NCBI GenBank assembly: GCA_029260905.1
Contig: JAJDCH010000011.1
Location: 512 to 64,511 of the forward strand
Direction: 5' to 3'
DNA length: 64,000 nucleotides
DNA from: Candidatus Levyibacteriota bacterium
Lineage (GTDB): Bacteria; Patescibacteriota; Microgenomatia; Levybacterales; UBA12049
The notes below the pieces were generated by a model that saw nothing but the letters and a program-made list of their open reading frames with translations, made no database searches and was not told the DNA's origin. Below, one piece after another: positions 2,656-21,487 of this stretch (its first letter is position 1; each line of letters starts with the position of its first letter). The translations under genes were made by a program, and so were the position numbers.

Positions 2656-4533
2656 ATGGAAGATCAACTACTCAAGGATTTAAACAAAGAACAACAAGCC
2701 TCAGTACTCCAAACAGATGGCCCGATGATTATTTTGGCTGGAGCAGGATCAGGAAAAACAAGAGTTCTTACATATAAGGTACTCTACCTTATGCTTGAAA
2801 AACAAATTGCGCCTGAGTCAATTTTGATGATTACATTTACCAATAAGGCTGCCAATGAAATGAAAGAGCGCATGGAAAAAATGCTCTCCAGTAAAGTAAA
2901 ATCCAAGAACCAAGAACCAAGAACCAGTGGTAAGCCTTGGATCGCCACTTTTCATTCAATGTGTGCCAAAATCTTAAGAGTTGAGGGTAAGCATCTTGGT
3001 TTTTCTGAAAAATTTGTTATTTATGATTCACAGGATCAGCTAGATGCGATAAAAGAGGCAATGACCAGGCTTGATATTTCTATAAAGGATTTCAAACCCA
3101 GATCTGTCCTATCAACAATATCTGGTGCCAAAAACGAACTAATAACAGCCAATGAGTATCTTAATTTTGCTAAAGGCCATTTTCAAGAGACTGTCTCTAG
3201 AATATATCCTGTTTACCAATCACTGCTCAAAGAGAATGATGCGCTTGATTTTGACGATCTTATTCTCATGACAATCAAACTTTTTCAGGACAATGAGCAG
3301 GTGTTGAAAAAATATCAGTTAAGACTTGAATATATTCTTGTTGATGAATATCAAGACACCAACAGAGCTCAATATATCCTGACCAAACTTCTTACCAAAA
3401 GATGGAAAAATATTTGTGTAGTTGGTGACTTCTCACAAAGCATTTATTCCTGGCGTGGTGCAGACTATCGAAACTTGATGCGTTTTAAAGAAGACTTTCC
3501 AGGAACCAGAACTTTCTCCCTTTCTCAAAACTACAGATCTACTCAAAAAATACTTGATGGAGCAAGTGCTGTTATATCCAAAAACACCTCTCATCCAGTA
3601 CTTAAACTCTGGACAGAAAATCCAGCAGGTTCTGAAATAGATATCTATGAAGCAGAGAATGAGCAAGACGAGGCGGATTTTATTATAAAACATCTTATTG
3701 ATAAGCATGTTGCAAATCTAAATGACATCGCAGTTCTTTATAGAACCAACGCGCAATCCCGTGTGATAGAAGAAGCATTTCTTCATCATGGCATACCATA
3801 CGTATTAATTGGAGGAACAAGATTCTATGAAAGAAAAGAAATAAAAGACGTTCTTTCATACATAAGAGTTGTTGAGAATCCAAAAGATTCTGTCTCATAC
3901 AAAAGAGTTGAAAAATTAGGCAAAAAAAGATTGCAGAAATTCAAAAACTACCAAGAAGAAACCCAAGATCCAAAATCCAAGATCCAAGATCTCAACACCA
4001 TAGATATACTCGATGGAATTATTAAAGCAACCAACTATCTTGATCTGTATGATGAAAAAATTGAAGAAGACAGGGCAAGACTTGAAAATATCAAAGAGCT
4101 TAGATCTGTTGCCATTGCACATCCTGATCTCACAGATTTTCTTGAAAACGTGGCACTGGTTGAGCAGGAATACAATTCAAAAAAAACCACAGAAGGAGAA
4201 ACCAAAAATGCAATTACACTCATGACGCTTCACGGAGCAAAGGGACTTGAGTTCCCAACAGTCTTCATGATCGGAATGGAAGAAGGACTTTTTCCCCACA
4301 GCAGATCACTCATGGATAAAACACAACTAGAAGAAGAGCGACGCCTTTGCTATGTTGGAATGACGCGTGCTAAAGAAAAACTTCTACTGACCTATGCGAG
4401 AAGAAGACTTTTTTTTGGACAAAGAGCAACCAACATGGTATCCCGTTTTGTCATGGAATTACCAGAACATCTAATAAATCAAGGTTTGGAATCAATTGAT
4501 TTAAAAGAAAAAGACCCTGCTGATCTTTTCTAA
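2656..4533 (+). CDS. uvrD: ATP-dependent DNA helicase, UvrD/PcrA family
   Basis: Walker A (AGAGSGKTRVLTYK), DEYQDTN motif II, and a conserved C-terminal 2B/2A region (LTLHGAKGLEFPTVFMIG). Contains two in-frame heptamer-repeat insertions. Confidence 0.85.
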   Translation: MEDQLLKDLNKEQQASVLQTDGPMIILAGAGSGKTRVLTYKVLYLMLEKQIAPESILMITFTNKAANEMKERMEKMLSSKVKSKNQEPRTSGKPWIATFHSMCAKILRVEGKHLGFSEKFVIYDSQDQLDAIKEAMTRLDISIKDFKPRSVLSTISGAKNELITANEYLNFAKGHFQETVSRIYPVYQSLLKENDALDFDDLILMTIKLFQDNEQVLKKYQLRLEYILVDEYQDTNRAQYILTKLLTKRWKNICVVGDFSQSIYSWRGADYRNLMRFKEDFPGTRTFSLSQNYRSTQKILDGASAVISKNTSHPVLKLWTENPAGSEIDIYEAENEQDEADFIIKHLIDKHVANLNDIAVLYRTNAQSRVIEEAFLHHGIPYVLIGGTRFYERKEIKDVLSYIRVVENPKDSVSYKRVEKLGKKRLQKFKNYQEETQDPKSKIQDLNTIDILDGIIKATNYLDLYDEKIEEDRARLENIKELRSVAIAHPDLTDFLENVALVEQEYNSKKTTEGETKNAITLMTLHGAKGLEFPTVFMIGMEEGLFPHSRSLMDKTQLEEERRLCYVGMTRAKEKLLLTYARRRLFFGQRATNMVSRFVMELPEHLINQGLESIDLKEKDPADLF

Positions 4534-4558
4534 TCTCCATTTCTGTTAAAATATACCT

Positions 4559-5542
4559 ATGATCGACTTTAATAAAACCGCGACCCACCCTCTTCAATCA
4601 TTTGAATGGGGAGAATTTAGAAAAAAAACAGGAGTCAAAGTAATAAGAGGTGAAAACTTTCAGCTCACAATTCATAAAATCCCACATACGTCTTTTACAA
4701 TTGGCTATCTACCGAAAGGACATATACCAAACAATGAACTAATTGATGAATTAAAAAAAATTGGCAAACAAGAAAACTGCATTTTTATTCAATTGGAACC
4801 AAATATCTTAAAAAGCAATAAACAAAAAGCAATAAACAAAAAGCTTGCTGAGGCCGCGCATCCTCTTTTTACTAAATACAATTTTGTTTTGGATATTACA
4901 AAATCGGAAGAAGAATTATTAAAAAACATGCATCAAAAAGCAAGATACAATATCCGCGTTGCGCAAAAACACAACGTTGAAGTAATTGAAGACAATTCAG
5001 ATAAAGCATTTGCAGAATATCTCAGACTCACTGATGAAACAACAAAACGACAGGGGTTCTTTGCCCACACGCTTGATTATCATAAAAAACAATGGACAAT
5101 CCTACCCCATAAAACTTCAAAAGATAAACTCAGCTCGCATTTACTAATTGCTAAATATCAACCACCAAGATCCAAGAACCAGAATTCAAGATCCAAGATC
5201 TTAACAGCTTGGATCTTATTTATTTTCAAAGACACGCTTTATTATCCATACGGCGCATCGATTAGTCAGCATCGCGAGGTAATGAGTAGTAGTCTTATGA
5301 TGTGGGAAGCAATAAGATTTGGAAAGAAGTTGGGACTAAAAAAGTTTGATATGTGGGGCGCCCTAGGACCAAATCCAGGCAAAAATGATCCGTGGTATGG
5401 ATTCCACAGTTTCAAAGAAAAATATGGTCCAAAACATATTGAATATATAGGAAGTTATGACATGATAATAAACCCTATTGCTTATCAGTTTTATAAACTT
5501 GCAGATAAAGTTCGATGGCTAATATTAAGATTTAGAAAATAA
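4559..5542 (+). CDS. FemAB-family peptidoglycan interpeptide-bridge aminoacyltransferase
   Basis: Core ARYNIRVAQKHNVEV and a C-terminal FDMWGA...GFHSFKEKYG block are typical of FemABX (PF02388). Contains an in-frame heptamer-repeat segment. Confidence 0.7.
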   Translation: MIDFNKTATHPLQSFEWGEFRKKTGVKVIRGENFQLTIHKIPHTSFTIGYLPKGHIPNNELIDELKKIGKQENCIFIQLEPNILKSNKQKAINKKLAEAAHPLFTKYNFVLDITKSEEELLKNMHQKARYNIRVAQKHNVEVIEDNSDKAFAEYLRLTDETTKRQGFFAHTLDYHKKQWTILPHKTSKDKLSSHLLIAKYQPPRSKNQNSRSKILTAWILFIFKDTLYYPYGASISQHREVMSSSLMMWEAIRFGKKLGLKKFDMWGALGPNPGKNDPWYGFHSFKEKYGPKHIEYIGSYDMIINPIAYQFYKLADKVRWLILRFRK

Positions 5543-8544: not shown

Positions 8545-10686
8545 TTATATCATGATTTTTCCATTTTTTACTTTTGGTTCAATTTCAGCACCTGGTTTTA
8601 TCGATCCTTCAATTATTCTTGTTGCTATCTCGTCAACTAACCTTTCATCAATTGCCCTCTTCAGGGGTCTTGCGCCAAAAACAGGATCATATCCAACTTC
8701 GGCAAAATAAATACTCAGATCATCTGTTATCTTCATATTTATACCATTCTCACTCATCCTCTCTTTTACCCGCTCCAATTGTAATTCTGCAATTTTGATA
8801 AGATCTTTGGGAGAAAGATTGTTATATGTAACAATTGAATCAAGCCTATTTAAAAATTCAGGTTTAAAATGCTGATGAAGAATTTCATTTATTTTTTTAT
8901 CAATACTGTCTTTATCGCTTTCCTCTTTCAAAATATCTCCGCCAAGATTACTAGTCATAATTATAATTGTATTTCTAAAATCAACTTTTACACCTTTACT
9001 ATCAGTCAGCATCCCTTCATCAAATATCTGGAGAAAAAGATTAAACACTTGAGGATGAGCCTTCTCTATTTCATCAAAAAGAATAACGGAATATGGCTTT
9101 CTGCGAACTGCCTCTGTTAACTGCCCACCTTCTTCATAGCCAACATATCCGGGAGGCGCACCAATCATTCGCGCAACGCTATGATTTTCCATATATTCAC
9201 TCATATCAATTCTTGTCAGGGCGTGCTCATTATTAAAAAGTATTCTTGCTAAGGTTTTTGCAGTTTCTGTTTTACCAACACCTGTTGGACCAAGAAAAAG
9301 GAAAGAACCAATCGGCTTGTCTCTTGCAGAAAGACCTGATCTTGATCTGCGAACAGCTCTTGCCACCAAATTAACAGCCCTGTCTTGACCTATTACTTGT
9401 TTTTTTAGTTCCTCATCAAGCTTTAAAAGCCTATCTGATTCAGTAGAAAGCACTTTGCTTACAGGTATCCCAGTCCAGCGCGCAACCACTTTTGCTATAT
9501 CTTCAGCATCAACCTCTTCCCTTAAAACCTGTTCGTCTGTTGGAATTTTGCTCCACTCATTCATTAACTCATTCAATCTCTTCTCAATCTCAGGAATTTT
9601 TCCATATTTTATTTCAGCCGCTTTTTGAAGATCAACATTACGCTCTGCTTCCTGAAGCTCTATCCGATATGTATCAATTTTTGCTCTCATGTCTTGCACT
9701 TTTTGAATTATTTCTTTTTGTTTTTTCCATCTCTTTTCAAGCGTACTTGCTTCTGCTTTTAATTTTTCAAGTTCTTTTTCTTGTGTCTCTTTTCTACTCT
9801 TAGAGATTTCACTTTTTTCTTTTTTCAATGCAGCAAGTTCTATCTCAATTTGTGTTATTTTTCTTTTCAATAGATCAAGTTCAGCCGGCATACTTTCTGT
9901 TTCAATTTTTATTGCAGCTGCTGCTTCATCTATAAGATCAATTGCTTTATCTGGTAAAAATCTTTGAGGAATATATTGCGCCGAAAGCTTGGCCGCTTGA
10001 ATAATTGCATTATCAGTTATACGAATCCCGTGGTGCAACTCATACTTTTCTTTAATTCCTCTCAAAATAGAAATAGTATCCTCAATTGTTGGCTCATCTA
10101 TAAGAACAGGCTGAAAACGTCTTGCAAGTGCTGGATCTTTTTCAATATACTTCCTATACTCACCAACTGTTGTCGCGCCTATCATTTTAAGCGCTCCACG
10201 AGCAAGTGCAGGCTTTAGCATATTTGCTGCATCAACAGATCCCTCGCTTGATCCTCCACCAACAAGTGTATGAAGCTCATCAATAAACATAACATATTTT
10301 CCATCTGCATCCTCTACAGCCTTTACAAGACTCTTTAGTCTTTCTTCAAATTCTCCCCTAAATTTTGCACCAGCCAAAAGCTGTGCAAAATCCAAAACAA
10401 GCACTTCCTTTTCTTTAAGAGGTGTTGGCACATTTTTTTCAAAAATTTTTTGAGCAAGTCCTTCAACTATTGCAGTCTTACCCACCCCTGGATCACCGAT
10501 AAGAACTGGATTATTCTTTGTGCGTCTTGAAAGTATCTCCATTATTCGCCTTATCTCAACCTCACGACCAATAACAGGATCAATTTTGCCACTATTTGCA
10601 AGATCAGTTAGATTAATTGTGAATTTTTTAAGCGCTTCATCAGGTGACACAGGCCTTAAAAAATCTATTGCTTGATTGTTGTTCAT
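8545..10686 (-). CDS. clpB: ClpB-type AAA+ disaggregase lacking the N-terminal domain
   Basis: Two AAA+ modules (GDPGVGKT and GPTGVGKT) separated by a long coiled-coil M-domain. It is 713 aa and has no Clp_N repeat. Confidence 0.85.
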
Positions 10687-10701
10687 GGGGATATTTTATA
10701 A

Positions 10702-10728
10702 TTAGCAGTAGAAGTTGTCAAGTGCTAA
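10702..10728 (-). promoter_or_regulatory. CIRCE-like inverted repeat (putative HrcA operator) overlapping the -35 of the clpB promoter
   Basis: TTAGCAGTA-N9-AAGTGCTAA compared with the consensus TTAGCACTC-N9-GAGTGCTAA. On the minus strand this overlaps TTGACA-17nt-TAAAAT, immediately 5' of the clpB ATG. Confidence 0.45.
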
Positions 10729-11105
10729 ATCGAAAGGTGTTTTCTATACTTTTCCTGAAAGTACCACATTAAATGACTCAAAAACGACATTCATTTTTTG
10801 TTCAAAAAAACTTAAAATTTTTTTCATAATTTCCTCACCTCCTTTTGGTAGGTTGTGTCATTAACTGGGCGTTAACTTAATTTCTCTGTCCTGCCCTTTT
10901 TTGCTCCGGGATAGCAACGTTTCGCTCCAGAATGGCATTTTGAAACCTACCTTCTTTAGTTTTTAACATCTCACTTATCCTATTAAAGCCATAATAGACC
11001 TAAAATATATGAATATAAATAAAATTTTGTAAGGAAAAGGAAAGATTTTCTTGAGGCTATTTTAATCAATTTCAACTTGACAAATACTAACAGTAATAAT
11101 TAAAT

Positions 11106-12839
11106 TTATCCAAAAGTAAAAGCATAGGCCTCAATTCCTGGCGAGAACTCAAGTCTCAATATATGATTTTCAGGATCACCTTTCAAATCTATAAGATTAT
11201 ACAATGTGTTCTTGTCAACTTTTACAATTCCATCCACCACATCCATACCACCATTTTTATCATTCACCAATTTTCCATCAAGATAAACTTTTACTGTTCC
11301 TACCTGTCCAGACTTCTTCAAATGAAGAACTAAAAAAACTTTTTCTGCTGTAAAATTAAACTCTAGAACAGAGTTACCAATAGATGCAGAATATTCCTCG
11401 CTTATGCTCCATTCTCCCCCAAGGCTAAATGAATTATTTGCAATATTTTTTGAAATGGTTAGTGCTTTTTGACCTTTAGTCAATCTCCCATTGGGATAAT
11501 AATACTCCATCCTTTCTGAACCAAGATACGTCTCCGGTGTTATATTTGTATTTGGCTGAGAAATTGAAACATCATTAATTTTCTCATTCACTTTCTGACC
11601 TGACTCTTCCAGAAGTGCTTGAATCACTTTTTCTGTTTCTGCATATGCGCCTTCTCCAAAATGGGTATATCTTATATATCCATCCTTATCGATCAGATAC
11701 TTTGCGGGCCAATAACGGTTGTTGTATGCTCTCCATGTTTCAAAATTGTTATCCTGAACAATCGGATACTTTAACTCAAAGTCATTTATAGCTTCCTGTA
11801 AGTTCTCTGAACTCTTCTCAAATTCAAACTCTGGTGAGTGCACGCCGATTATCACAAGTCCCTTATCAGAATATTTCTCATTCCACATCTTAAGATATGG
11901 AAAAGTCCTTTGACAATTTATACATGTATAAGTCCAGAAATCAACAAGCACTACCTTATCCTTAAGATCACTTATCTTTAAAGGCTTACTATTGAACCAC
12001 TCTCCACCTGGTATTATCTCTGGCGCTTTTAATTTTTGATCACCTAAATCATTGGGAATTTGATCACTTTTTTCATCTCCACTTTTTAATTTTTCAAGCT
12101 CATTTTTTACAAAATCATTATCTTCAAAAGCTGTTAAACCCACTCCGTATTGAGGAAATGTTCTAAGCACGTATGATTGAAAGTCACGATCAATATTAAA
12201 ATTGAGTCCAATCGCTGTTATTATCATCAGAACTCCAAAACCTTTTTGAATTTTATCAGCATTTGGAATAAGCCATGGAACTTTTTGAAGTAAATTTCGC
12301 CCACCATACATGATAGCAAGCATCGGTATCGCAGTACCTAGTGCATATGCGAGAGTAATTATAACTGCTCCAAAACCAACAGTACTTGTCGCAGCAAGCG
12401 TTATGATGGATGCAAGAATTGGACCCACACAAGGTGTCCAAATAAGGCCAATACTAAGACCAATCAAAATACCCCCACCAAAACCCTGTCTGCTATCTTT
12501 TCCATTTCCGCTAATTACTAACCTGCTTGATAACTTAGAAAAAAGCTTCTCCATCAATAATTGAAACTGTGGCAAAAGAAGAGTTACACCAAACAAAAAT
12601 ATTATAACAACTGATACAAATCTCAAGGCATCAGCAGATAAACCAGTCGCTCTGACGATCGCTGATAAGAAAAGTGTAAAAAAGGTAAAGCTGAGTATAA
12701 AACCAGCTACAATTCCAAAAGGTTTTTTCTTTCCGCCACCAACACTACCTGATAGTACTATTGGAAGTATTGGTAATATACACGGAGAAAGAATAGTTAC
12801 AACTCCTCCCAAAAAAGAAAATAAGACAAGTAAAAACAT
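11106..12839 (-). CDS. DipZ-like thiol:disulfide interchange protein (CcdA/DsbD membrane domain fused to a thioredoxin domain)
   Basis: CcdA cysteines (LSPCILPILP and WTPCVGPIL), followed by a thioredoxin fold (WTYTCINCQRT) and a C-terminal beta-rich domain. Confidence 0.75.
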   Translation of the reverse strand: MFLLVLFSFLGGVVTILSPCILPILPIVLSGSVGGGKKKPFGIVAGFILSFTFFTLFLSAIVRATGLSADALRFVSVVIIFLFGVTLLLPQFQLLMEKLFSKLSSRLVISGNGKDSRQGFGGGILIGLSIGLIWTPCVGPILASIITLAATSTVGFGAVIITLAYALGTAIPMLAIMYGGRNLLQKVPWLIPNADKIQKGFGVLMIITAIGLNFNIDRDFQSYVLRTFPQYGVGLTAFEDNDFVKNELEKLKSGDEKSDQIPNDLGDQKLKAPEIIPGGEWFNSKPLKISDLKDKVVLVDFWTYTCINCQRTFPYLKMWNEKYSDKGLVIIGVHSPEFEFEKSSENLQEAINDFELKYPIVQDNNFETWRAYNNRYWPAKYLIDKDGYIRYTHFGEGAYAETEKVIQALLEESGQKVNEKINDVSISQPNTNITPETYLGSERMEYYYPNGRLTKGQKALTISKNIANNSFSLGGEWSISEEYSASIGNSVLEFNFTAEKVFLVLHLKKSGQVGTVKVYLDGKLVNDKNGGMDVVDGIVKVDKNTLYNLIDLKGDPENHILRLEFSPGIEAYAFTFG

Positions 12840-19706: not shown

Positions 19707-20789
19707 TTATAAATTCTGCGCTTTATGTCGCAAATAATGATCCATTATGACTAGTGCCGACATCGCATCAACTATTGGTACAGCTCTTGGCAAAACGCAT
19801 GGGTCATGACGTCCCGCAGCGCTAAGCGTTACCTCTTTTTTATTTTTGCTTACTGTTTGCTGTTCCTTTTTTATCGTTGAAACAGGCTTAAAGGCAACTC
19901 TAAAATGAATCGTCTCGCCATTTGAAATACCTCCTGTTACTCCCCCTGAATTATTTGAACTGGTTCTTATTTTTCCATCTTCAATCTTAAAAGGATCATT
20001 GTGCTGACTACCTCTTAATTTTGTCCCTTCAAATCCTGATCCTATCTCAAATCCCTTAACAGCATTAATGCTAAGCATAGCTTTCCCAAGATCTGCACTG
20101 AGCTTATCAAAAACAGGCTCACCAAGACCAACTGGCACATTTTTGATAACTCCTCTTATAGCCCCTCCTATTGAGTCTCCATCTTCTTTTACATCCTCGA
20201 TAAGCGAGATCATCTCCTCTGCTTTTTCAGGATCAGGACAACGGATGATATTTGCTTCAACATCCTCCATTGAGACATTTTCAAAATCAATATCTGTTCT
20301 GATATTACCAACACTTTCAACATAGCTAATTATTTCAACGCCTAATTTCTTATACAAATATTTTTTTGCAATCACACTTGCAGCAACGCGCGCTAAGGTC
20401 TCTCTTGCAGATGCGCGACCCGATCCTCTCCAATCACGAAAACCATATTTTGCCTCATATGTATAATCTGCATGAGATGGACGATACACATCCTTTAGCT
20501 CTATATAATCATCTGATTCAAATTCCTGATTGAAAGCAATAACAAGAATTGGTGTTCCAGTTGTCTTTCCTTCAAAAACACCTGAAAGGATTTTAACAGT
20601 ATCTGATTCTTTTCTTGGTGTAGTAATCTTACTTTGTCCTGGTCTTCTTCTGTCCTGCTCTTTCTGGATTTCTTCCTCTGTTATCTCAATTCCAGGAGGG
20701 CAACCATCAACAACCACTCCCACGCCACCGCCATGCGATTCTCCAAAAGTTGTTATTCTAAATAAATGTCCAAATGTATTTCCAGCCAT
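19707..20789 (-). CDS. aroC: Chorismate synthase
   Basis: [18 protein letters not shown] together with the FMN-binding segment. Confidence 0.9.
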
Positions 20790-20806
20790 ATTTTATAAAT
20801 TAAAAA

Positions 20807-21487
20807 TCAGGAATTATGAATTATGGAAAACACCTTTTCCATATCATCTTTTGTAAGTTGTCCTTCTGCCGATTGCTCGTCCAAGGTCTTCGGCACAAAA
20901 ACCATTTCATTTCCATATAGTGTTCCAAAAATTCTTGTCAGCAAACTTTTTTCACCCATTCCCAAAATAATATGCTTAATATTTTTATCCCGCAACTCCA
21001 AACCCAAATCCAAAAGCCTAATTGCGTCTTTTTCTGTTTTACAAAATGTTGATATTTTTACAATGTTTGGACTGTGCTGATCCATTGTATCAATTATTTC
21101 ACTCAATTTCTTGCTTTCTGGAGTTTCCTCATAATTATGATACGAAATAATTTTTTTAATTTTTAAATTATTATCTTTTATGTGCTCCAACTCCTCTTTT
21201 TGTGCTATATCAATATCAAGCATCGCATCGGTGTCTTCCAGAAATGAAACAATCTCAAGCCTTTTCTCAAGATTTATCTGTATTGGCTCCAGATTTTTCC
21301 TCCTGAAAAGAATTATCAATTTTTCTCTCAATTCCTCACTCAATTGACTAATAAAATTAGTATCAATCTTATCAACATAATCAATCCAGACTTCAAAAAA
21401 ATCATACTCGTGTTTGTGTTTTGAAATCATTTCCAACACATCATCTTTTGAATTTTTAATAATTGGCAAACAATAATTTATTTTCAT
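20807..21487 (-). CDS. aroD: 3-dehydroquinate dehydratase, type I
   Basis: ISYHNYEETP and ILGMGEKSLLTRIFG are AroD-like blocks. Confidence 0.7.
   Translation of the reverse strand: MKINYCLPIIKNSKDDVLEMISKHKHEYDFFEVWIDYVDKIDTNFISQLSEELREKLIILFRRKNLEPIQINLEKRLEIVSFLEDTDAMLDIDIAQKEELEHIKDNNLKIKKIISYHNYEETPESKKLSEIIDTMDQHSPNIVKISTFCKTEKDAIRLLDLGLELRDKNIKHIILGMGEKSLLTRIFGTLYGNEMVFVPKTLDEQSAEGQLTKDDMEKVFSIIHNS

Follow-up and report, generated by a model that had tools for sequence, protein, structure and literature searches.

The 64,000-nucleotide stretch of Candidatus Levyibacteriota DNA analysed here (contig JAJDCH010000011.1, positions 512 to 64,511; hereafter the window) contains two adjacent, co-directional genes, uvrD and a FemAB-family gene (2656–5542), that carry four short tandem arrays of heptanucleotides in frame. 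Our data show that a process specific for 7 nt, which forms and homogenises such arrays, exists in the lineage to which this DNA belongs: the 7-nt period is favoured over others, the arrays are abundant across the lineage, lie in frame and in protein loops, change in steps of 21 nt, evolve in concert, are inherited vertically and are stable among close strains. We consider it probable that the arrays of the window, three with the unit CCAAGAW and one with a period of 14 nt, are nothing exceptional but belong to a population of short heptanucleotide simple sequence repeats (SSRs) spread throughout Levybacteria-like bacteria of the candidate phyla radiation (CPR), and that they are tolerated by-products, not switches.

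Heptanucleotide arrays in uvrD and the FemAB gene

Arrays were called with Tandem Repeats Finder (TRF) and with a sliding self-match scan that covered all 64 kb of the window (at least 20 of 24 self-matches, lags 4–12 and 14). All four lie on the + strand and are in frame in their host genes. Array 1, at 2903–2926, consists of 3.4 copies of CCAAGAA with 100% match and encodes SKNQEPRTS (residues ∼83–91 of UvrD). Array 2, at 3963–3991 of the same gene, reads CCAAGAT-CCAAAAT-CCAAGAT-CCAAGAT-C (4.1 copies, 90% match) and encodes TQDPKSKIQDL (residues ∼436–446). The third, at 5165–5200 in the FemAB gene, is the most degenerate (CCAAGAT CCAAGAA CCAGAAT TCAAGAT CCAAGAT C, 5.1 copies, 72% match) and is translated as PRSKNQNSRSKI (residues ∼203–214). 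A first-pass annotation of the sequence had described these three arrays, and both their reality and the linker peptides that it gave for them stand: TRF reports a period of 7 for each, the open reading frames (ORFs) on the + strand are intact, and the arrays exceed what chance provides. Its coordinates were right for site 3 and off by one base for sites 1 and 2, whose whole units occupy 2903–2923 and 3963–3990. It had overlooked the fourth array, found by TRF and by the scan at lag 14, which occupies 4810–4844 of the FemAB gene and is made of two alternating heptamers, (AAAAAGC AATAAAC) x 2.5, giving a period of 14 with 100% match. Its peptide, KSNKQKAINKK, spans codons ∼85–95 of 327, at a position that we call hotspot 1.

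The sliding scan returned matches at lag 7 (sites 1 and 2) and at lag 14 only, all of them within a single 2.3-kb stretch. When the dimer pattern CCAAGAWCCAAGAW was searched with at most two mismatches, 10 matches were found against 2.9 ± 1.7 in shuffled sequence, none of 100 shuffles reaching 10, and eight of the ten fall in arrays 1–3; the same search bears out the earlier statement that the CCAAGAW unit is not tandem elsewhere in the window. Single copies of the unit are moderately over-represented (45 versus 25 expected). All positions are well inside the genes (codons ∼83–91 and 436–446 of 625 in uvrD, ∼85–95 and 203–214 of 327 in the FemAB gene). Within each 21 nt of a heptamer array the unit is read in all three frames, which is why arrays in ORFs are built from units without stops; CCAAGAA and CCAAGAT are free of stops in every frame of both strands.

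Two further tracts of the window were noticed. A weak one, (AAGTCTT) x 2.9 with 84% match and close to the TRF threshold, lies in the intergenic sequence directly upstream of the uvrD start codon (2622–2641). The other is a degenerate (TTATGAA) x 4.7 with 76% match at 20793–20825, at the junction between the chorismate synthase gene (19707–20789, − strand) and the ORF upstream of it (20807–21487, − strand). Its unit contains TAA on the − strand, and the tract probably belongs to this class of arrays as a non-coding member.

Alignments of 120 sequences per protein, 240 in all, place every site of the window in a loop whose length varies from genome to genome, and the segments found here are absent from most orthologs. 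Hypervariable length was seen at UvrD sites 1 and 2 and in three FemAB loops, and these loops often hold other peptides with a periodicity of seven residues, such as ANGKWQMANGKS, SYQSSVSSYQS and VQSSKFKVQS. Compared with PcrA (1PJR), UvrD has 10 extra residues at site 1, inserted after the motif Ia helix, and site 2 belongs to a stretch of UvrD that does not align to this structure at all. Structure alignment puts site 3 just ahead of the core of the second FemAB domain, where the Fem proteins of S. aureus have a long insertion. In AlphaFold2 (AF2) models, site 1 is modelled as coil (84–94) between a helix at 63–83 and a strand at 95–97, with the predicted local distance difference test (pLDDT) score dipping to 61; site 2 as coil (437–447) between two helices, again with a local dip in pLDDT; and site 3 as coil (201–212) forming the loop of a β-hairpin between strands 192–200 and 213–223, the block of lowest pLDDT in its model (75). 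Judged from these alignments and models, the array-encoded segments are predicted surface loops and lineage-specific additions to conserved proteins, as the first-pass annotation had suspected when it asked whether they are insertions.

The nearest relative available for comparison at the codon level is locus L081 (GCA_029260965), whose UvrD is 78% identical to that of the window. In the window, site 1 has exactly 7 additional codons, equal to three units (21 nt). At site 2 the two genomes do not differ in length and the copy in L081 is more decayed (ATCCAAGATAAGAATTCCCAAATTCAAGATCAA), so this array is inherited, old and stable. Site 3 is longer by 10 codons (30 nt). The counterpart of array 4 in L081 is (AAGCAAG) x 3.9 at the same offset, and of 32 related genomes about half have a heptamer array in the linker of hotspot 1.

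The host genes themselves are well defined. The first (2656–4533, +) is recognised from its ORF and translation, from the Pfam content of its homologs (PF00580, PF13361, PF13245, PF13538) and from its match to PcrA 1PJR (E = 4e-165, aligned residues 2–424 and 446–608) as encoding a UvrD/PcrA-type DNA helicase of 625 residues, with the core domains and conserved motifs of superfamily 1. The second (4559–5542, +) encodes a protein of 327 residues assigned to the FemAB family of peptidoglycan bridge-forming aminoacyl/peptidyl transferases. Its homologs carry PF02388, it matches structures 6SNR and 1LRZ, and its AF2 model has a pLDDT of 93.9, all of which point to a FemAB fold with two GNAT-like domains; the catalytic role is a predicted one. 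The pair is flanked by genes for TIM, a LytR_cpsA_psr protein, RNase H and a ClpB-like ATPase. GC content of the window is ∼35%, and the closest homologs of its proteins are labelled Candidatus Levybacteria, Levyibacteriota and other CPR bacteria of the Microgenomates group. The nearest UvrD is only 78–79% identical. In the protein collection this genome has no second strain, its protein cluster consisting of one member from one contig, and a look-up by exact protein sequence gave no record.

A lineage-wide population of arrays and its dynamics

For comparison we collected 80 uvrD-centred loci (1.39 Mb), of which 998 kb are of Levybacteria/Microgenomates type and 388 kb come from other CPR bacteria (Saccharibacteria and others), and scored, lag by lag, all perfect self-matches that run over 14 nt or more. 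The Levybacteria/Microgenomates-type loci hold 26 runs at lag 7, nine at lag 14 and three each at lags 12 and 15, while all other lags from 4 to 13 have none; triplet-shuffled controls give ∼0, and the other CPR loci a single run at lag 7. Seven is also the commonest period reported by TRF in the related loci (107 of 496 arrays). Arrays of at least 2.8 copies number 89 in the Levybacteria/Microgenomates-type loci versus 8 in the other group. Their density in the former is ∼9 per 100 kb, and the highest values, 4–6 per 10 kb, are reached in L022 (up to 6), L055, L016 and L011. While the four clear arrays of the window all sit within 2.3 kb, those of its relatives are dispersed, and the confinement to such a short stretch that the first-pass annotation had proposed does not hold for the class: like arrays with other units occur over ∼1 Mb of related genomes.

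Of the 97 arrays of at least 2.8 copies, long intact ORFs contain 75 (77%); 4 are at the edge of an ORF and 18 lie outside. The last category is 3.4-fold enriched relative to random windows (19% versus 5.5%), as would be expected if some coding insertions are purged. A typical array has 3–5 units and is ∼24–36 nt long. Units vary by genome and by site (AAATTCG, AAATTGG, AAATTTC, AAATCCG, GCAAATG and others), with many families in one genome, and identical units are 8 times more frequent within than between genomes (6.2% versus 0.8%); the threefold use of CCAAGAW in the window fits this re-use. Arrays are richer in AT than the ORFs that contain them, and their coding strand is A-rich twice as often as T-rich. 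The peptides they encode are enriched in N, S, Q and K, and T-rich units are found in membrane proteins (for example, FRISDFGFRI). No Rfam family was found at the arrays.

Outside the collected loci, (CCAAGAA)n tracts, mostly of 27–37 nt, were seen in more than 120 metagenome contigs (L089–L168 among them) with GC from 0.30 to 0.68, many of them outside long ORFs, and this unit family is therefore widespread well beyond CPR bacteria. In metagenome contigs such tracts are often directly adjoined by arrays of AGAACNN units (AGAACTG, AGAACCG, GGAACTA). Beyond duplicate contigs and these adjoining arrays of related units, no conserved flanks were found around (CCAAGAW)n in 80 metagenome loci. Within the collected loci we noticed an intergenic region (L001, 7868–7929) with two adjacent arrays, one of AAGATTA and one of TCTTAAA, whose units are almost reverse complements of each other, so that a long hairpin could form; inverted pairs of this kind are also present at L016 18770 and L010 13505.

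How the arrays change can be read from pairs of relatives. L087 has two and L088 five units of AAATCAA, a difference of exactly 21 nt. Indels between nearest neighbours in FemAB peak at 7 residues, with 12 events versus 2–6 for each of 4, 5, 6 and 8 residues, and there are more at 10 residues. A filter for reading frame is evident, which passes net changes in multiples of 3 nt, typically three units. Concerted evolution at constant length is seen in a DUF2298-type membrane protein, where one orthologous site with conserved flanks holds a perfect (TTTCGGA) x 4 in L022 (6954–7060), a perfect (TTTCGAA) x 4 in L055 (5682–5790) and four different decayed units in L016 (6857–6960), all of the same length. 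The ANGKWQM family at UvrD site 1 shows a pattern of vertical inheritance and decay in several species. At the shortest time scale, five strains of a related species with 99–99.6% nucleotide identity were compared over 22 kb: no copy-number difference and no indel was found at their ∼7 heptamer arrays, which include arrays of 4.6 and 5.1 copies at 92–96% match.

The sole large difference within these 22 kb (L082–L086, strains of at least 99% identity, ∼5050–5320) is the replacement of a small gene between recX and recA, which is a DUF1653 gene in four strains and an unrelated ORF of 181 residues in L083. Two of the collected loci have unusual uvrD regions. In L023 three short ORFs resembling the 5′ part of uvrD (9907–10585) lie directly upstream of a full-length copy (10575–12461), which suggests a partial tandem duplication or a pseudogene remnant. 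In L052 (3677–5361) the gene is split into ORFs of 113 and 389 residues, by pseudogenisation or assembly error.

Origin of the arrays

The probable reading of the arrays as tolerated SSRs would imply a process at the DNA level, working in a 7-nt register, that creates, resizes and re-homogenises arrays genome-wide. Its simplest form would be slippage of strands or switching of templates while DNA is replicated or resynthesised in repair, a mechanism already put forward for heptanucleotide repeats of prokaryotes at large. Within genes, selection would then retain only outcomes that preserve the frame, with a net change of 21 nt (three units) or some other multiple of 3 nt. Units would have to be free of stops in all three frames, and arrays would have to lie in surface loops that tolerate insertions. 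What survives would be translated as loop segments of seven-residue periodicity, mostly hydrophilic (rich in N, S, Q and K). Once born, an array would be inherited vertically and either decay by point mutation, as sites 2 and 3 appear to have done, or keep or regain its perfect state, as may be the case for site 1 and the 14-nt array. Arrays would thus be mutational by-products that selection tolerates and not regulatory switches.

Several observations sit uneasily with this account, at least in its simplest form. A jump from two to five units, as between L087 and L088, is not something that simple slippage can do in one step from a seed of one or two units. Perfect arrays have a sharp mode at 29–35 nt, or more closely 31–34 nt, and never exceed 35 nt, inside ORFs and outside them, which a slippage equilibrium does not predict; the same mode recurs in 80 unrelated metagenome contigs with (CCAAGAW)n and GC from 0.30 to 0.68, and it recalls the four units preferred in Xanthomonas and Nostoc. 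The 30-nt excess at site 3 is not a whole number of units. Some perfect arrays fill a linker of fixed length or replace a conserved motif with little net change in length. Thus the hotspot 1 linker of FemAB is exactly 20 residues long in 13 of 32 genomes, with or without a perfect array, and in a PMT_2-like (glycosyltransferase-like) protein two unrelated perfect arrays, (ATTGGAA) x 4.4 of L013 (4397–4427) and (TTTTCGC) x 4.3 of L022 (3055–3084), occupy the identical interval, where they replace an IPLLNIPIN-like motif conserved in seven other genomes at a net change of at most two residues. Re-use of units within a genome hints that arrays are copied from one another or that each genome has a template or preference of its own. 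It should also be noted that hypermutability in this particular genome is excluded only by analogy with relatives and by the anatomy of the arrays.

Some of these points would be met if pre-formed heptamer blocks of ∼21–33 nt were copied into new sites by ectopic template switching, gene conversion or a miniature mobile element, which would explain why one genome re-uses one unit. Three arrays of the same unit within 2.3 kb, with the youngest (site 1) ∼1 kb from the older site 2, the within-genome excess of identical units, the sharp array boundaries, the block-like appearance of the 21- and 30-nt insertions and the presence of (CCAAGAA)n in many unrelated metagenome contigs of widely differing GC, reminiscent of TAACTGA repeats with their suspected horizontal spread, all speak for such copying. 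However, we found no terminal repeats, target duplications or conserved flanks, the flanks being unrelated both to each other and to the unit, and no transposase among the neighbouring genes scanned. A genome contains many different units, three-unit changes and homogenisation happen in place, and direct or inverted copies of the unit are not enriched nearby (5 and 6 observed in the 60-nt flanks of 72 arrays versus 6.1 and 5.8 in controls). We therefore regard copying of this kind as unlikely. A footprint of a small insertion sequence (IS), which the first-pass annotation had offered as an alternative, is not supported either, as terminal repeats are lacking, the neighbours are housekeeping genes and, in relatives, units differ between sites. 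A candidate for snap-back or local templating, CCTTGGAT (Pro-Trp-Ile codons 10 nt downstream of array 1), which is the reverse complement of a rotation of the unit, was dropped after the same flank test. It seems doubtful that in Levybacteria-like CPR bacteria, and perhaps in many prokaryotes, an active process with a length ruler writes and rewrites heptamer tracts of ∼30 nt (4–5 units); it could involve a templated repair polymerase or reverse transcriptase acting at breaks and sometimes overwriting resident sequence. If it were true, each genome would have its own repertoire of units, and arrays would be a readable record of enzyme activity or binding sites of a partner factor instead of the outcome of passive slippage. 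A broader proposal is that the arrays are functional cis-elements, selected as sites in DNA or RNA and bound for example by a genome-specific factor, or that a dedicated templated ‘writer’, for instance a reverse transcriptase or a repair polymerase, produces them with a ruler of ∼30 nt. In its favour, the modal 4–5 units are the same in coding DNA, in non-coding DNA and in unrelated taxa, one and the same interval can hold perfect arrays of unrelated units in different genomes, a genome re-uses the units it has and homogenisation alters all copies together. Yet we identified neither an enzyme nor a binding protein as a candidate, a single genome contains very diverse units, many arrays simply decay, the arrays have no Rfam family and their placement is explained by the tolerance of loops, so that we hold this proposal to be improbable. 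The phase at which metagenome arrays start and end, considered as a test for fixed template boundaries, is confounded by the search pattern and was not used.

Since 7 is not a multiple of 3, the first-pass annotation had also seen in the arrays a possible phase-variation or mutator switch, that is, contingency loci whose hypermutable tracts slip by one unit and turn UvrD (mutator) and FemAB (cell wall) off and on in subpopulations. The effect of a slip is as it had said: a change of one unit would truncate UvrD to 94–104 or 446–458 residues and FemAB to 212–237. A phase-variable gene that works by heptanucleotides, neuO, is real and is ON only at copy numbers divisible by 3, and concerted evolution together with 21-nt changes means that register shifts do occur over evolutionary time. 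Nevertheless site 1 has only 3.4 perfect units, sites 2 and 3 are interrupted, and the arrays lie in the middle of genes, not at the 5′ end or in a promoter, their hosts being housekeeping genes and not genes of the surface or of host interaction. Site 2 has kept its length relative to L081 across 22% divergence in UvrD protein, the five near-identical strains show no copy-number differences, and no uvrD or FemAB gene with a frameshift at an array was seen among the 80 loci. The broken uvrD of L052 was considered as an OFF allele and rejected, the deletion or frameshift being near residues 113–125, away from any array; six arrays that separate ORFs of one strand but different frames appear to mark ordinary gene junctions. 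A switch is therefore not supported, and we think it quite improbable that such contingency loci operate here. As for low complexity arising by chance in an AT-rich genome, or an assembly artefact, the GC content of ∼35% and the excess of single CCAAGAW copies lend it some initial plausibility, but the shuffled controls never reach the observed dimer count, both in the window and in 1 Mb of related loci arrays are essentially limited to lags 7 and 14, and they keep the frame and turn up in many assemblies made independently by different projects, which makes this explanation exceedingly improbable. Against all of these, slippage or template switching filtered by selection continues to be the account that we favour for the arrays of the window.

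Heptanucleotide repeats in bacteria have been known since the cyanobacterial short tandemly repeated repetitive (STRR) elements. A CPR lineage whose arrays are mostly inside conserved housekeeping genes provides a natural experiment on their origin that is tractable by comparative genomics: because orthologs can be aligned for every array, one can date and count how arrays are born, step by three units, are homogenised in place and decay. The frame, the stop-free units, the loop position and the hydrophilicity of the products make up the selective filter, which is open to direct reading. For practical work, lineage-specific inserts of low complexity in CPR proteins can mislead alignment, annotation and structure prediction, and indivisibility of 7 by 3 is insufficient ground for calling arrays phase-variation switches.

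Comparison with known heptanucleotide repeats and in-frame elements

No published description of heptamer arrays in CPR bacteria, Patescibacteria or Levybacteria was found in the literature searched, and comparison has to be made with other prokaryotes. Rickettsia palindromic elements (RPEs) are mobile palindromes of ∼100–150 bp that belong to a few fixed families and are inserted in frame in genes for conserved proteins. Like them, the arrays described here are repetitive DNA in frame in housekeeping proteins, at surface-exposed, tolerant positions, and are translated; unlike them, they are tandem heptamers of 21–35 nt with many different units.

A closer parallel in unit length is neuO, the phase-variable capsule O-acetyltransferase gene of E. 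coli K1, which has an AAGACTC heptanucleotide tract in its 5′ coding region and yields a full-length product only if the number of units is divisible by 3. It has 3–53 units, most commonly 20, and is out of frame in 66% of genomes; within one culture 7% of cells deviate from the main copy number. The arrays of the window share with neuO a 7-nt unit within coding sequence and a frame that depends on the number of units. In contrast to its perfect tract of 3–53 units at the 5′ end of a surface-modification gene, they have 3–5 units, are partly degenerate and are located in the middle of housekeeping genes, and where neuO is heterogeneous in culture, arrays of the present class do not vary among close strains of a relative and persist across deep divergence.

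TAACTGA direct repeats are scattered in sets of 2–6 copies over genomes of Beggiatoaceae, Cyanobacteria and Bacteroidetes (MacGregor 2015, PMC4679880). This unit has stop codons in all three forward frames and is mostly found just upstream of start codons, so that a role in translational regulation has been proposed, and its horizontal spread is suspected (PMC4679880). As with TAACTGA, one unit occurs here in phylogenetically distant organisms, namely (CCAAGAA)n in metagenomes, and the rare intragenic copies of TAACTGA resemble our arrays in being at the protein periphery. The difference is that TAACTGA is a single, stop-bearing unit placed before starts, whereas the arrays of the window are stop-free and internal to genes.

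The nearest match is the general class of prokaryotic heptanucleotide SSRs. According to a summary of earlier work, most prokaryotic genomes have heptanucleotide repeats as their most abundant class of long SSRs, for which slippage of a polymerase that contacts 7 nt has been proposed (Mrazek 2007 as summarised in PMC4679880). In Xanthomonas and Nostoc, GGGNATC arrays show a preference for four units, are mainly intergenic and are under-represented in ORFs (Rehm et al. 2015, PMC4692102). With these and with the cyanobacterial STRR elements our arrays have in common head-to-tail 7-nt units, over-representation of period 7, units typical of a lineage or genome, a length of about four units and, in the relatives of this genome, dispersal through the genome. 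While GGGNATC- and STRR-type repeats are mainly intergenic, 77% of the arrays studied here, and all four in the window, are inside ORFs, in frame and in housekeeping genes; they also differ from GGGNATC-type SSRs in having many unit families per genome and AT-rich units that are unable to form G-quadruplexes. On our best reading, then, these arrays are to be filed with prokaryotic heptanucleotide SSRs, among which they are unusual in being mostly intragenic and filtered for frame.

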